A stretch of 64,000 bases of DNA from an uncultured Dehalococcoidales bacterium (GTDB taxonomy: Bacteria; Chloroflexota; Dehalococcoidia; GIF9; AB-539-J10). This document shows positions 7,988 to 27,123 of this stretch, in pieces; the first letter of the stretch is position 1, and every line of letters starts with the position of its first letter. Below the pieces are notes generated by a model, which saw only the letters and a list, made by a program, of their open reading frames with translations, did not search any database and was not told the DNA's origin. The position numbers and the translations under genes were made by a program. The stretch lies in contig CAZDXE010000001.1 of assembly GCA_964509565.1 (NCBI GenBank), forward strand, positions 3,670-67,669, in the 5' to 3' direction.

Positions 7988-9703
7988 ATGCGTTTTTCTA
8001 AACTTTTTGGCAAAACTTCACGACAAACTCCAGCGGAAGCTGAGGGCATAAGTCATCAGTTGTTGCTCAGAGCAGGCATGATAGCCCAGATAGCTTCCGG
8101 AATCTATTCCTATTTACCCCTGGGCTGGCGAGTACTCAAAAAAATAGAACAGATAATCAGGGAGGAAATTAATATAACAGGCGGGCAAGAATTGATGCTG
8201 CCAGTGCTGCAGCCTTTTCAGCTATGGCAGCAATCAGGTCGTTATGTTTCCTTCGGTGAATCCCTGTTTACGCTGAAGGATAGAAAAGAACATGACCTGG
8301 TTTTGGGCCCTACTCACGAGGAGGTTATCACAGAGCTTGTTCATCGCTATGTGCAAAGTTATCGTGATCTCCCACTACTGCTGTATCAAATACAAACTAA
8401 GTTCCGTGACGAGCCTCGCCCCCGTGGCGGATTGCTGAGAGTTCGCGAATTTATCATGAAAGATCTCTACAGTTTTGATATTACTGGAGCTGGACTGGAT
8501 GAAAGCTATAAAAAAATGGCTCAAGCTTACAAGAATATTTATGCTCGCTTGGGCTTGCCTGTTCTGATGGTAGAAGCTGATAGTGGTGCCATAGGCGGCA
8601 AAGAATCCCATGAGTTTATGGTTATCACTGACTCTGGAGAAGATGAAATTATTTATTGTTCCAGTTGTGGCTATACTGCTAATACAGAAAAGGCTCAATT
8701 TGCTAAAACAGAGATAGCTACTGGAGGCATGTTACCTCTGGAAGAAATATCCACCCCAGGCACAAAAACTATAGAAGAAGTAGCTAGTTTTATTGGTGTG
8801 CCTGCAAATCAGACGCTTAAAGCCGTGTTTTACTCTGCTGATGACGAATTTATTATTGTAGTTATACGAGGCGACCTGGAAGTAAATGAAATAAAGTTAC
8901 GGAATGCACTGAAGTGTTCTGAACTTAGATTAGCCACAGAGGGTGAAGTAAATGAGGCAGGCATAGTGGCTGGTTTTACCTCACCTGTAGGAGTAAAAGG
9001 TATCAGAGTTATTGCTGATGACTCACTCACTTTGGGTTCGAATTTTATTGTTGGGGCTAACAAAATAGGATACCACTTCAGAAATGCCAATTACCCTAGA
9101 GATTTTCAGGTTGATTTTATAGCTGATATTGCCTTGGCTCGTGCTGGGTATAAATGTTCTAACTGTGACAACAAACTATCCTCTGCACACGGTATTGAAG
9201 TGGGGCACATATTCAAATTGGGTACGTTTCTCAGTGAGAAACTAGGAGCGAGTTTCCTCAATAGCGATGGTATACTTCAGCCTGTAATCATGGGTTGCTA
9301 TGGCATTGGGTTGGGACGTCTTTTAGCCGCAATAATAGAGCAAAGCCATGATGATAAAGGAATTATTTGGCCACTCTCTGCTGCTCCTTATCAAACCTGC
9401 CTTTGCTCACTTTGTATGGATGATTCTGTGATCGCCTCTGTATCAGAAGACGTCTATCAAAAACTAAATAAGGAAGGAATCGAAGTTCTCTATGATGACC
9501 GGGATGAATCCCCTGGAGTTAAGTTCAACGATGCTGACCTTTTAGGCATACCTCTGCGCTTGACCTTAAGCCCACGCACCTTAAAAAAGCAAAGCATAGA
9601 GATAAAATGGCGCACAGAAAAGGAATTTCAACTTTTGTCTCTGGATAATATTGCCTCAACAATTAAAACACTGTTGAGGGAGAAAACTAGTCTCTTAAAG
9701 TAG
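7988..9703 (+). CDS. proS: Prolyl-tRNA synthetase
   Basis: Class II aaRS motifs with ProRS-specific LLRAGMIAQIASGIYSYLPLGWRVLKKIE. 571 aa, bacterial type with an editing-domain insertion. Confidence 0.93.
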   Translation: MRFSKLFGKTSRQTPAEAEGISHQLLLRAGMIAQIASGIYSYLPLGWRVLKKIEQIIREEINITGGQELMLPVLQPFQLWQQSGRYVSFGESLFTLKDRKEHDLVLGPTHEEVITELVHRYVQSYRDLPLLLYQIQTKFRDEPRPRGGLLRVREFIMKDLYSFDITGAGLDESYKKMAQAYKNIYARLGLPVLMVEADSGAIGGKESHEFMVITDSGEDEIIYCSSCGYTANTEKAQFAKTEIATGGMLPLEEISTPGTKTIEEVASFIGVPANQTLKAVFYSADDEFIIVVIRGDLEVNEIKLRNALKCSELRLATEGEVNEAGIVAGFTSPVGVKGIRVIADDSLTLGSNFIVGANKIGYHFRNANYPRDFQVDFIADIALARAGYKCSNCDNKLSSAHGIEVGHIFKLGTFLSEKLGASFLNSDGILQPVIMGCYGIGLGRLLAAIIEQSHDDKGIIWPLSAAPYQTCLCSLCMDDSVIASVSEDVYQKLNKEGIEVLYDDRDESPGVKFNDADLLGIPLRLTLSPRTLKKQSIEIKWRTEKEFQLLSLDNIASTIKTLLREKTSLLK

Positions 9704-23887: not shown

Positions 23888-23959
23888 TACCCCTGAAGGG
23901 ACTCGAACCCTTGCACCTGGCTCCGGAGGCCAGCGCTCTATCCTCTGAGCTACAGGGGC
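23888..23959 (-). tRNA. tRNA-Arg (anticodon CCG)
   Basis: Reverse complement GCCCCTGTAGCTCAGAGGATAGAGCGCTGGCCTCCGGAGCCAGGTGCAAGGGTTCGAGTCCCTTCAGGGGTA. Anticodon loop CTCCGGA gives CCG. Good cloverleaf; CCA not encoded. Confidence 0.87.
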
Positions 23960-24172
23960 GGGAGATATACTCTACCACCATCAAGTAATTTAATCAAACA
24001 AACTGCGAGGAACCTATTTAGTGGCTCAATGCACATAAAATCTGCGATGGCAAAAACGAAATTGCCAGATAGCATTTCCTTGTTATTTACTTTTATGGTA
24101 TATTTTAGTTTATAATATAGATTGAATGGCGTAATATGTATTATAAAGTAACATGATTAGGAGGGTTGTTAA

Positions 24173-25858
24173 ATGAAATTACTATCTCGGCTGCTTATTG
24201 CTCTACTTGCCTGCCTTATTGCCATTCCTGCGATGGCTACACCAGTTCAAGCTGCTGACATTTCCAGTATGTCGCTACATCCGAGTAGCGGCACAGTTGG
24301 AGAGGAAGTGTATATTACAGGCTCATGTGAGAGCAGTGATGATTATTGGGTATACTACCAGCTGAATACCAACGAATGGGTAGAAGTGCTGGAGGATAAT
24401 GACTTTGACTTTGACTCGAATGGGGAGGACTATGAATACAGCACCAAGGATGAGAAATTCCTCATCCCCGAGAGCTGCAGTGGAAAACACGCAATCACGA
24501 TTTGCGATAAAGACCTGGGGAGTTCAGTGGATGATGATGATGAAGTTGAAGACGATGAAAAATATTCAAAAGACTTCACTGTAAAGCCAAAAGTAGAAAT
24601 AATAGAGATAGCAGGCGACGAAATAGATGACCCCGATGATGCCAGAGGAGCAACGGGAATCGAAGTCACGGTGAAAGGCACCGGGTTCGGTGAGGATGAA
24701 GAGGATATCGATATATTGTTCGAGGGCGAAGTAGTATCAGATGAACAATTTGAAGCAGATGAATATGGCACATGGGAAGGAACCTTTGAGGTGCCCACTG
24801 CTACCAAGGGCGACCATGATGTTTCAGCCGAGGGTCATGATACCGATGAGGATGATGTCGAGGAAGCTACCTTTGAGGTAATGCCTGGTATAAGCGTGGA
24901 TCCGAAAAGTGGCTCACATGGTGAGACTGTAACTGTAACAGGCAACGGATTTGGAGAGGACGAAAGAAATATTAAAATACTGTTTGATGATGACACGATA
25001 GCCAGTGGCATCGAGGCTGATGAGGATGGCTGCTGGGAGGAGACTTTTGATGTGCCTCAATTTGCCAAAGGCAAATATGATATAACGGCCGAGGGTAGTT
25101 ATACTGATAAAGACGACATTGACGAAGTGGAATTTGAGATAGTGCCCGGATTAACATTGTCTCCTGTCCAAGGGAATGTGGGGACAACCTTATCCGTCAG
25201 CGGTAGTGGCTTCCCCAAGAACACGTCAGTAGTTATTACCTATGATGGAGTGACCAAGGGTAGCAGCACTACCCAGAGCAACGGCAGCTTTTCAGGCGTG
25301 AGCTTTGAGGCTACACATATTCAGACAACACACACTACAAAACATCCAGTGGTAGCTACTGGTGGTTCTACTACGCTTACCATCAACTTCACCATGGAAT
25401 CAGTTGCACCACCTGCCCCTACTCTCACATCTCCAACCGCTGAGGAAAGGGTCGGCTCCGTAATAGGCAGTAAATTTACTCCTGCATTCGAATGGCAAAC
25501 CGTAGTGGACGACAGTGGAATCAACTATTATAGCTTGCAAATAGCCAGCAATGTAGATTTTACTACGGAAGCTATACTATTTTCGCGGAATTTAACAGTG
25601 GCAGAGTTGGCTGCCGGCACAGGATCAAATACAATTAGTTATGCCCTTCCCAAAGATAGCGCTTTACTTTACGGCACCTACTATTGGAGAGTAAAAGCAA
25701 TTGACAATGCTCAGAATGAATCCGCATGGAGTGTTGCTCATTCCTTCAAGACCGGGCTTTTGCCCTTCTGGGCGCTTATATCTATTGCTTCTCTAATAGC
25801 AGTGCTCATTGGCGCTCTAGTTTATCTCCTCATCAAGAGGGGAGGGTCTTATGATTAA
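24173..25858 (+). CDS. Secreted, C-terminally membrane-anchored, highly acidic cell-surface protein with tandem IPT/TIG-like Ig-fold repeats and a C-terminal FN3-like domain
   Basis: Sec signal peptide (MKLLSRLLIALLACLIAIPAMATPVQA/AD). Three repeats of roughly 75 aa with the G.TVTV.G.GFGEDE..I.ILF....V.....EADE.G.WE.TF.VP....G..D..AEG pattern and more than 30% D/E. An FN3-like segment (YYWRVKAIDNAQNESAWS). A C-terminal hydrophobic helix plus KRGGSYD tail. Strong AGGAGGG SD. TTGAAT-N17-TAAAGT promoter-like sequence upstream. Confidence 0.7.
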   Translation: MKLLSRLLIALLACLIAIPAMATPVQAADISSMSLHPSSGTVGEEVYITGSCESSDDYWVYYQLNTNEWVEVLEDNDFDFDSNGEDYEYSTKDEKFLIPESCSGKHAITICDKDLGSSVDDDDEVEDDEKYSKDFTVKPKVEIIEIAGDEIDDPDDARGATGIEVTVKGTGFGEDEEDIDILFEGEVVSDEQFEADEYGTWEGTFEVPTATKGDHDVSAEGHDTDEDDVEEATFEVMPGISVDPKSGSHGETVTVTGNGFGEDERNIKILFDDDTIASGIEADEDGCWEETFDVPQFAKGKYDITAEGSYTDKDDIDEVEFEIVPGLTLSPVQGNVGTTLSVSGSGFPKNTSVVITYDGVTKGSSTTQSNGSFSGVSFEATHIQTTHTTKHPVVATGGSTTLTINFTMESVAPPAPTLTSPTAEERVGSVIGSKFTPAFEWQTVVDDSGINYYSLQIASNVDFTTEAILFSRNLTVAELAAGTGSNTISYALPKDSALLYGTYYWRVKAIDNAQNESAWSVAHSFKTGLLPFWALISIASLIAVLIGALVYLLIKRGGSYD

Positions 25859-25909
25859 ATTAAAGATCGCATAAACTATAATTTATGTGACTTTTATACG
25901 TGGCGCACA

Positions 25910-25927
25910 TTACTTTATGTAAAGTAA
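25910..25927. promoter_or_regulatory. Perfect palindrome TTACTTTA-TG-TAAAGTAA upstream of the tubulin-like gene (candidate operator/promoter element)
   Basis: An 8+8 inverted repeat with a 2-nt spacer, 21 nt upstream of the ATG at 25948. It shares the TAAAGTAA octamer with the region 24143-24150 upstream of the surface-protein gene. Confidence 0.35.
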
Positions 25928-25947
25928 TTTAAACGAGGAGGATTAAA

Positions 25948-27123
25948 ATGAAATTAACAGTTATTGGATTAGGACAATGTGGTTGCCGCATTGCTGACCA
26001 GTTTGCCAGGCTTAATTCCAAGGCACAAGTTGAGCGCAGGGCAACCATAGCGCCAGACATAGTCGCTGTGAACAGCGACCAGGCAGATTTAACTGGATTG
26101 AGATTTATTAAGAAAGACTATATGCATAGTATACTCATCGGTTTACGCCAGACATTGGGGCATGGCGTGGGCAAGATAAATGAAATAGGCGCCCAATTAG
26201 CCAGAGAAGATGGGGATAAGGTGATGGATGCTATAAAGGCAGAGCCAACGTTTTATGAAACACATGCTTTTCTGCTCATTGGTGGTGCTGCTGGTGGCAC
26301 TGGCTCAGGCGCATTACCTGTGATTGCTCAGATGATTAAGGAGAGGTATCTCAATAAACCGATTTATGCCCTTGTTGTATTACCATTTGAACATGAAATT
26401 AGCAGTGAGACCAGAAGCGTATACAACACAGCCACCTGTCTCAAATCCATATATGATGTAGCCGATGCCGTTTTCCTGGCTGATAACCAGAGGTATGTTA
26501 GAAAAGATGCCAGTCTGGCTAATAACATAGAAAAAATAAACCGTCATATTGCAGAACCCTTCTATGACTTGATGTGCGCTGGCGAAATAACTAAGCGCAA
26601 ATTCGTGGGCTCCAGAACTGTAGATGCAGGAGACATTATTGCCACACTGGAAGGCTGGACAGCTATTGGAATTGGTAGAACTCCGCTGCCGTCATTTCGT
26701 TTCCCATGGGAAATAAAGAAGAAAAGCTTCCACGAGAAAGCTATGGAAAGCTTTCGAGGCTCTCAGGCCCTGGATGCTACACTATCTGACCTCTCTATTG
26801 GCTGCGACCCTAATGATGCTGCCAGAATTACATATATTATATCTGGACCAGCCAAGGAAATGAACATGGATATGGTCAAAGGCGTTAGCGAGTATCTCAA
26901 AGAGATATCGCCCACTGCTTTAATCAGAGGCGGTGACTTCCCTGGTGAAAAACACTTTATCGATATCACATTGATATTATCTCAGCTCTCTTCCGTGCCT
27001 AAAATAAAGGACCTTTATGAGAAAGCTGTCAAATATGGACAGGAGCATAAAGGTCAAATAGAGGAAAGTCACAAAAAAATTCAATCCATGGCTGATGTAG
27101 GCAAGGAATTGCCCACATTGTAA
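25948..27123 (+). CDS. Tubulin/FtsZ-superfamily GTPase, CetZ-like and non-canonical (not the division FtsZ)
   Basis: N-terminal MKLTVIGLGQCGCRIADQF has the T1 loop GQCG, as in tubulin GQCGNQ and CetZ GFGQAGG. T4 signature IGGAAGGTGSGALPVIAQMIKE matches tubulin/CetZ GGGTGSG, against FtsZ GGGTGTG. A GHGVG motif and ..FLADNQRY.. (T7-like DN) follow. From memory, the N-terminal roughly 230 aa align along their length with Haloferax CetZ1. GAGGAGG SD. Confidence 0.75.
   Translation: MKLTVIGLGQCGCRIADQFARLNSKAQVERRATIAPDIVAVNSDQADLTGLRFIKKDYMHSILIGLRQTLGHGVGKINEIGAQLAREDGDKVMDAIKAEPTFYETHAFLLIGGAAGGTGSGALPVIAQMIKERYLNKPIYALVVLPFEHEISSETRSVYNTATCLKSIYDVADAVFLADNQRYVRKDASLANNIEKINRHIAEPFYDLMCAGEITKRKFVGSRTVDAGDIIATLEGWTAIGIGRTPLPSFRFPWEIKKKSFHEKAMESFRGSQALDATLSDLSIGCDPNDAARITYIISGPAKEMNMDMVKGVSEYLKEISPTALIRGGDFPGEKHFIDITLILSQLSSVPKIKDLYEKAVKYGQEHKGQIEESHKKIQSMADVGKELPTL

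Follow-up and report, generated by a model that had tools for sequence, protein, structure and literature searches.

The closest structurally solved relatives of the tubulin studied here are the CetZ proteins of archaea (CetZ1 and CetZ2 of Haloferax volcanii, CetZ 3ZID of Methanosaeta), which have been described as archaea-specific and of which CetZ1 has a part in the development of rod-shaped cells in Haloferax (PMC11621097). Tubulins of the bacterial class Dehalococcoidia have been assigned to sparse, paraphyletic "CetZ-like" groups outside canonical CetZ (PMC9871819), and because such proteins are already in the literature the presence of one in this class is not new. According to published work, Dehalococcoidales, like the archaeal hosts of CetZ, have no peptidoglycan and are covered by a protein surface layer; the loss is placed in the ancestor that Dehalococcoidales share with the marine radiation, and cells of Dehalococcoides mccartyi are discs (PMC10284905). 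D. mccartyi has a separate FtsZ besides its tubulin GTPase, and pure cultures of strain BTF08 (discs) held more of the "FtsZ/Tubulin GTPase" btf_0551, and of a hypothetical protein encoded nearby, than co-cultures (barrel-shaped cells) (PMC8163811), a correlation with morphology that is an indirect pointer to a role in cell shape. Here we analyze a stretch of 64,000 nt (the window) from an uncultured Dehalococcoidales bacterium (GenBank assembly GCA_964509565.1, contig CAZDXE010000001.1, positions 3,670 to 67,669 of the forward strand), in which the gene for a CetZ-like tubulin directly follows, on the same strand, the gene for an acidic surface protein built of immunoglobulin (Ig)-like domains (hereafter the Ig-protein). 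We find that the two genes form a unit conserved across Dehalococcoidia and that the first of them carries its own, nearly invariant promoter-like element. Neither the pairing with a surface protein nor the private promoter was found described in the literature searched.

The central features of the locus, in window coordinates, are as follows.

24085 to 24116, plus strand: promoter-like element ATTTACTTTT-N9-TTTTAGTTTATAAT, with its −10 box TATAAT at 24111-24116 and a −35-like TTTACT at 24086-24091
24159 to 24164, plus strand: Shine-Dalgarno sequence AGGAGG of the Ig-protein gene, found by sequence inspection and kept in the related loci L001 and L002
24173 to 25858, plus strand: Ig-protein gene, an open reading frame (ORF) of 561 aa for an acidic type-I membrane surface protein
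25862 to 25894, plus strand: AU-rich hairpin after the Ig-protein stop codon, its loop being TATAAT (25878-25883), the sole TATAAT in the spacer
25936 to 25941, plus strand: Shine-Dalgarno sequence AGGAGG of the tubulin gene, found by sequence inspection; GGAGG precedes the tubulin gene in nearly all loci
25948 to 27123, plus strand: CetZ-like tubulin gene, an ORF of 391 aa with GTPase domain, CetZ_C domain, T7 loop TVDAGD and C-terminal GKELPTL

The Ig-protein and tubulin genes are a two-gene unit conserved across Dehalococcoidia. A genome scan with an alignment of the tubulin returned 80 loci, all from metagenome-assembled genomes (MAGs) of Dehalococcoidia/Chloroflexota, and of the 73 whose upstream DNA is available, all but two (71) carry an Ig-protein homolog as the immediate same-strand neighbor upstream of the tubulin gene. 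The arrangement spans tubulins of 95-60% identity and Ig-proteins of 86-30% identity, with spacers from 11 to 616 nt (≤62 nt in 31/71 loci). Reverse look-ups from three Ig-protein homologs (37-39% identity) found an adjacent gene with Tubulin and CetZ_C domains in 3/3 cases, one in inverted order (L081) and others beside two or three tandem Ig-protein paralogs. A metagenome sample anchored on the promoter-like element contained the Ig-protein gene followed by the tubulin gene in 49 loci. The flanks are less constant: upstream neighbors in L074 are genes for CTP synthase, transaldolase and Rho, as against pyruvate:ferredoxin oxidoreductase (POR) and tRNA-Arg in the window, and the downstream neighbor is a terminase-like gene in L074 and an M24 peptidase gene in the window. 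An earlier, sequence-only reading of this DNA had proposed conservation in relatives as a check on the pair, and the loci above bear the pair out; it had also put the two genes on the same strand, which they are, and 90 nt apart, where we measure 89 nt. A search of representatives for the nearest non-orthologous relatives of the tubulin gave 1163 matches; contigs P0270, P0271, P0275 and P0279 (1.4-3.5 kb) were uninformative as to a pairing older than the transfer.

The promoter-like element is confined almost entirely to Ig-protein genes. Across loci it has the general form ATTTACTTTT-N9-TTTCGTTTATAAT; it occurs once in the window and never in shuffled sequence, and the related loci (924 kb) contain 28 instances of a relaxed form, every one of them on the coding strand ahead of an Ig-protein gene. 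A position weight matrix built from 27 fixed-spacing instances gave 36 matches in the 924 kb of related loci plus the window, again all on the plus strand upstream of an Ig-protein gene, including tandem Ig-protein paralogs outside the building set. In an independent, unbiased metagenome scan for TTACTTTT-N9-TTTCGTTTATAAT (82 instances in 80 loci), 73 of the 74 informative instances precede a same-strand Ig-protein homolog, one is unrelated, and 8 lie too near a contig end. Apart from that single unrelated instance, the related loci and the metagenome scan showed the element before no other gene. At the inverted-order locus it stands between the tubulin gene and the Ig-protein gene and therefore belongs to the latter. 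We read the element most simply as a putative promoter of the Ig-protein gene, since its −10 box is a perfect, invariant TATAAT and its distance from the start codon differs among loci (modal distance from TATAAT to ATG of 22 nt in the metagenome instances); transcription in the window would start near 24123. The −35-like box is atypical (TTTACT at 19-nt spacing, or TTACTT at 18 nt) and goes uncalled by a sigma-70 consensus scan. About 20/30 positions of the element are nearly invariant, far beyond the needs of an ordinary housekeeping promoter. A dedicated factor that recognizes it, or selection for very high and precise expression, is the likely cause.

By sequence comparison, the downstream gene product is a CetZ-like tubulin and not FtsZ. 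It matches Pfam Tubulin (PF00091) at 112.5 bits against a cutoff of 33 (residues 3-182) and CetZ_C (PF21011) at 70.7 bits against a cutoff of 21.6 (residues 189-361), and CetZ_C is annotated in 120/120 listed homologs. The top matches in a sequence search of the PDB are CetZ1 (4B46, E 1.7e-46), CetZ2 (4B45, 4.3e-27) and Methanosaeta CetZ (3ZID, 4.2e-17), ahead of the best FtsZ (6.8e-9), tubulins (about 1e-6) and RepX/TubZ (2e-5). The CetZ_C domain and these best matches uphold the CetZ-like label given in the sequence-only reading. FtsZ belongs to the same superfamily and shares the GTPase signature; our protein, however, scores 59 bits on the FtsZ equivalog model TIGR00065, whose cutoff is 295.2, and the name "cell division protein FtsZ" under which the same protein cluster is public (MCD6600232.1) therefore looks like a misannotation. 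In the window the tubulin gene lies outside any division gene cluster. The protein also falls below the cutoff of Tubulin_2 (PF13809; 22.3 bits against 27).

The sequence elements of a working GTPase are retained. The motif GGAAGGTGSG, which contains a G-box signature of the GGGTGSG type, is invariant in the homologs, as are D226 and D229; the T7 loop TVDAGD aligns to VVDSSE of CetZ1, which sets the acidic D229 opposite E218, the residue needed for GTP hydrolysis in the polymer. With the GTP-binding motif and the T7 catalytic loop intact, the protein is predicted to polymerize. Its extreme C-terminus, (K/R)(D/E)LPxL, is kept in all orthologs. The resemblance to archaeal CetZ thus comprises the GTPase domain, CetZ_C and the acidic T7 residue, and the alignment to CetZ1 covers the N-terminal ~240 residues and a shorter C-terminal stretch only. 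In contrast to archaeal CetZ, the host here is a bacterium, and proteins of this kind are placed outside the canonical euryarchaeal clade, with 80/80 loci in Dehalococcoidia/Chloroflexota and the CetZ-like proteins paraphyletic (PMC9871819). Neither a conserved transmembrane Ig-protein partner of archaeal CetZ nor any other membrane or envelope partner of CetZ was found described in the literature searched.

Non-canonical relatives of FtsZ offer a second comparison. FtsZl1 and FtsZl2 (Makarova and Koonin 2010) are likewise non-canonical members of the FtsZ-tubulin superfamily linked by genome context to membrane proteins, and the sequence-only reading had invoked reports on such families as precedent. 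They are a different family: in FtsZl1 the T6-H7 elements are missing and the C-terminal region is unrelated, and neither FtsZl1 nor FtsZl2 has a recognizable tubulin-type C-terminal domain (PMC2875224). The tubulin of the window is distinct from both because it has the T7 loop and a tubulin-type C-terminal domain (CetZ_C), in addition to its score below the Tubulin_2 cutoff. We also observed a second CetZ-like paralog with Tubulin and CetZ_C domains, 40-44% identical, in L074 (14685-15794, minus strand) and in L068, L070, L073 and L075-L077. It lies 6-7 kb off on the opposite strand, adjoins MgsA and has no Ig-protein gene beside it.

The upstream gene encodes an IPT/TIG surface protein with the following parts.

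Residues 1 to 27: signal peptide, N-terminus MKLLSRLLIALLACLIAIPAMATPVQA|AD, with predicted cleavage at the bar
Residues 28 to 137: Ig-like domain D1
Residues 138 to 236: TIG-A
Residues 237 to 323: TIG-B
Residues 324 to 410: TIG-C
Residues 411 to 527: FN3/Ig-like domain
Residues about 532 to 554: transmembrane helix
Residues 555 to 561: cytoplasmic tail KRGGSYD
25766 to 25855, plus strand: coding region of the membrane anchor and 7-residue tail, comprising LPxW, the transmembrane helix, 2-4 Arg/Lys, an aromatic residue and a D/Y end

Pfam TIG (PF01833) matches the 561-aa protein in two stretches at 56.3 bits against a cutoff of 20.9, which together with the secretion signal identifies it as an IPT/TIG surface protein, and Ig_Rha78A_N (FN3-like) matches the C-proximal residues 435-530. 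Across an alignment of 20 homologs, down to 40% identity, the signal peptide with its PVQA cleavage-type site, the series of domains and the C-terminal segment of LPxW and transmembrane helix are all kept. Hydrophobic segments are limited to residues 1-28 and about 525-559, and an AlphaFold2 model (mean predicted local distance difference test, pLDDT, 86) has five domains of beta-sandwich fold and then a single helix at 532-556. The architecture proposed in the sequence-only reading (signal peptide, Ig/TIG repeats, FN3-like module, C-terminal transmembrane anchor) is thus confirmed by Pfam, alignment and model. A possible lipoprotein signal (LLAC) was rejected, since its Cys varies among homologs. 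The protein is strongly acidic (isoelectric point 4.05, net charge −74), and the acidity is limited to the three membrane-distal domains, where Asp+Glu make up 28-35%; TIG-C, the third TIG repeat, is close to neutral, as is the FN3-like domain. In the homolog alignment P531 and W533 are invariant and Y560 nearly so. Among 86 homologs the tail is in most cases 6-8 residues long, with 2-4 Arg/Lys and then an aromatic residue in the last or penultimate position (YD in 42, YY in 18, WK in 6, and others). Named homologs come from Dehalococcoidia MAGs, and the current public label of the surface protein is "hypothetical protein".

The spacer of the window is consistent with a single transcript. No G+C-rich terminator is present in it, and a tubulin promoter at TATAAT 25878-25883 is unlikely: this hexamer forms the loop of the hairpin, which is conserved in L001, and no acceptable −35 box accompanies it. 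The equivalent hairpin of L001 has 16 bp with changes on both arms, and the whole L001 spacer folds at z = −4.8. The hairpin may be an attenuator or a stabilizer of the mRNA 3′ end, and would perhaps lower the level of tubulin or favor the surface protein. Most likely, then, the tubulin gene of the window is co-transcribed from the putative Ig-protein promoter, and the spacers of ≤62 nt in 31/71 loci likewise imply one transcript. Some spacers hold further elements. In a more distant group at 61% identity (L073-L077 and L080) we observed a clear promoter TTGACA-N17-TAATAT and then, just before the tubulin Shine-Dalgarno sequence, a palindrome GTTAAC-N6-GTTAAC, all within about 20-85 nt ahead of the tubulin start codon (at locus position 8001); the palindrome may be a lineage-specific operator or a small hairpin. 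G+C-rich hairpin repeats of the repetitive extragenic palindromic (REP) type, ending ...CTCGCAATGACAA, fill many spacers, some of them with more than one copy, both ahead of the Ig-protein gene and between it and the tubulin gene (L003, L018, L019, L024, L030, L032, L034, L054, L063 and L069).

We favor, as the more probable reading, an operon-like envelope-cytoskeleton module in which a conserved pair acts together under a dedicated promoter-like element. The first gene encodes a secreted, highly acidic string of five Ig domains, held at the surface by a single C-terminal transmembrane helix with 6-8 cytoplasmic residues, and the second a cytoplasmic CetZ-type tubulin predicted to polymerize. 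The first gene would be driven by its nearly invariant promoter-like element, and in the window the tubulin gene follows after 89 nt without a convincing promoter or terminator. Both products would act at the envelope, where sub-membrane CetZ-like filaments would arrange the surface protein or set its position, in what is reported to be a peptidoglycan-less lineage. More speculatively, the two might touch directly through the basic-aromatic tail of the surface protein, the LPxL peptide of the tubulin, or both. The envelope or cell-shape module suggested in the sequence-only reading stands as to the conserved pair and falls as to joint regulation by a shared motif (below).

Several observations weigh against this reading. 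Tubulin genes without an Ig-protein gene occur in L071 and L072, and in L097 and L102 one or more Ig-protein genes are followed directly by a terminase-like gene with no adjacent tubulin gene. Spacers are long, up to 616 nt, in many lineages, and the tubulin gene of the 61%-identity group follows a TTGACA-N17-TAATAT promoter of its own; co-transcription therefore does not hold in every lineage. A tail of 6-8 residues is very short for a specific binding site, and an AlphaFold2 model of the tubulin (from a 10-sequence alignment) reached a pLDDT of 35 and is unusable. Finally, all pair loci belong to one bacterial class and the wider synteny is partly kept (PHO4, PhoU_div, MgsA, AMMECR1 and radical SAM genes, all of which are also present in the wider window), so that some of the adjacency may be inherited gene order.

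Inherited synteny is the main rival, if an unlikely one. On this account an ordinary adhesin or envelope protein and an independent tubulin (serving, for example, division or shape) stay together because gene order in the class is conservative, as the recurrence of the terminase-like gene, PHO4/PhoU_div and MgsA/AMMECR1/radical SAM around the pair would suggest; the exceptions lacking one partner and the separate tubulin promoter of some lineages also fit it. The adjacency, however, outlasts changed upstream neighbors, tandem duplication, inversion of the order and divergence to ~30% identity, and spacers as short as those noted above imply one transcript.

The C-terminus of the Ig-protein raises a different, improbable alternative, in which LPxW, transmembrane helix and Arg cluster form a cleaved sorting signal in the style of sortase, exosortase or archaeosortase substrates. 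The protein would then be a lipid- or envelope-anchored coat of the S-layer type, whose insertion the tubulin positions without contacting the tail. The tripartite layout is indeed present, with invariant P531 and W533, the helix and the basic cluster; an unrelated neighbor ends similarly (below); and a dedicated, strongly conserved promoter with a strong Shine-Dalgarno sequence fits high expression. The multi-Ig ectodomain also recalls, among many other Ig chains, the Haloferax S-layer glycoprotein csg (7PTP), which shares the signal peptide, Ig-like chain, strong acidity and C-terminal anchor (PMC8640222). There is no sequence similarity between the two, however, and the Ig-protein sequence has no match in the PDB. 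A Foldseek search with the Ig-protein model returned generic multi-Ig chains, all at low template modeling scores, with 7PTP at rank 10 (about 0.15-0.17) and generic multi-Ig proteins scoring equally or better. An NCBIfam scan of the whole protein gave no CTERM or LPXTG model at E ≤ 0.01, nor a match to PGF-CTERM or another known sorting model. The putative S-layer-like label of the sequence-only reading has behind it an architectural resemblance and a generic Foldseek match to 7PTP. The conserved aromatic-D/Y end would moreover be unnecessary in a discarded peptide. Just upstream of Ig-protein genes we also observed genes for proteins of 1118-1195 aa without a Pfam match (L102:1815-5402, L081:1192-4548 and L082:2170-5697, plus strand). 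The one in L102 (1195 aa, unrelated to the Ig-protein) has the similar C-terminal anchor PFW-TM-RTRRV (TM, the transmembrane helix), which hints at a cluster of envelope-protein genes with one common anchor type near Ig-protein genes.

A shared operator or promoter, TGGCG-N-TAAAGTAA, had been proposed in the sequence-only reading to co-regulate both genes. Its two copies are the following.

24127 to 24151, plus strand: copy 1, TGGCG-N12-TAAAGTAA, in the predicted 5′ untranslated region of the Ig-protein mRNA; not conserved
25901 to 25927, plus strand: copy 2, TGGCG-N14-TAAAGTAA, holding the inverted repeat TTACTTTA-TG-TAAAGTAA at 25910-25927

The pattern does precede both genes as described, with internal spacers of N12 and N14 in place of N14/15. 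The Shine-Dalgarno AGGAGG begins 7-8 nt after it and not 23-29 nt, and the supposed perfect palindrome TTACTTTATGTAAAGTAA consists of two inverted arms (8+8) flanking TG, which is not itself palindromic. Its occurrence in the window exceeds expectation (2 against 0.02, in a post hoc test; TAAAGTAA alone, 9 against 3.2), and the weak hairpin of copy 2 is kept in L001. Comparative data nevertheless largely refute a shared operator, which we regard as highly improbable. Before the Ig-protein gene, L001 and L002 lack ATGGCGT, a 7-nt insertion unique to the window, and read CAAACTAA or TAAACTAA in place of TAAAGTAA; before the tubulin gene, L001-L003 lack TGGCG and the inverted repeat survives only in L001. 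Copy 1 sits downstream of the conserved −10 box. Among dinucleotide-shuffled pairs of the two upstream regions, 40% have an exact 8-mer in common, and in 10.7% a similarly spaced 5-mer accompanies the shared 8-mer. We conclude that the motif is no regulatory element common to both genes, and a regulon built on it was rejected on the alignment with nearest relatives and the shuffle test. An RNA element was rejected as well: an Rfam scan gave only tRNA and sub-threshold snoRNA matches and none at either copy, the 5′ untranslated region of the Ig-protein gene folds no better than shuffles (z = +0.65), and the inverted-repeat hairpin of copy 2 reaches only −4.2 kcal/mol. On the minus strand (24139-24153) copy 1 reads TGTTACTTTATAATA, which differs at two positions from the −10 half of the promoter-like element and faces tRNA-Arg(ccg) about 180 nt away; this could be a divergent promoter or an AT-rich coincidence. 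The sub-threshold matches to C/D-box snoRNAs (24953-25022 and 24527-24579, plus strand; 28 and 21.8 bits, where the gathering scores are 50 and 80) lie inside the coding region of the acidic repeats and are almost certainly due to chance, with GA-rich repeats as the cause.

A gene resembling that of the phage terminase large subunit (444-468 aa; Pfam Terminase_6C; PHROG terminase E 5e-12) follows the CetZ-like gene directly, in convergent orientation and together with an ORF of 113-126 aa, in 34/59 loci with enough DNA (for example L072:9210-10885, L074:9381-11193 and L070:9172-10891, minus strand; also L081-L084, L097 and L102). We saw no other phage genes near it, and it may be domesticated. 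That the pair is a mobile or phage remnant, with the tubulin a DNA-positioning protein like TubZ or PhuZ tied to this gene, is the least probable of the readings considered and was rejected: the window has no terminase-like gene, its context is housekeeping, the tubulin is closest to CetZ and not to TubZ (RepX E 2e-5), and its gene is conserved across the class at 60-95% identity. Indeed, the window is ordinary chromosomal core (aminoacyl-tRNA synthetases, POR, NuoF-like proteins, aldehyde:ferredoxin oxidoreductases, transporters and peptide-binding proteins). Upstream of the Ig-protein gene, on the opposite strand, lie tRNA-Arg(ccg) at 23888-23959 and the POR operon; the M24 peptidase gene follows the tubulin gene.

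Whereas the CetZ proteins have passed for shape determinants specific to archaea, a CetZ-like tubulin is here fixed beside one type-I surface protein throughout a bacterial class, major lineages of which are reported to be peptidoglycan-less. The pair is a testable candidate for linking a tubulin-family filament to a protein envelope, and might help to explain why cells of Dehalococcoides-type organisms, which are of importance in bioremediation, are discs or have other shapes. The 30-nt element, unusually conserved for a promoter and private to the gene of the surface protein, could mark a dedicated regulator or sigma factor. Public annotation can be corrected, from "cell division protein FtsZ" to CetZ-like and from "hypothetical protein" to surface Ig-protein. 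A bolder proposal, which we hold only tentatively and think unlikely as a whole, is that wall-less Dehalococcoidia acquired a CetZ-type cytoskeleton horizontally and coupled it physically, through the tail and/or LPxL, to a multi-Ig protein under a private promoter, as a stand-in for peptidoglycan. If true, no CetZ-family protein would have had a defined transmembrane partner before this one, and the coupling would constitute a bacterial shape or envelope-patterning system in place of peptidoglycan.

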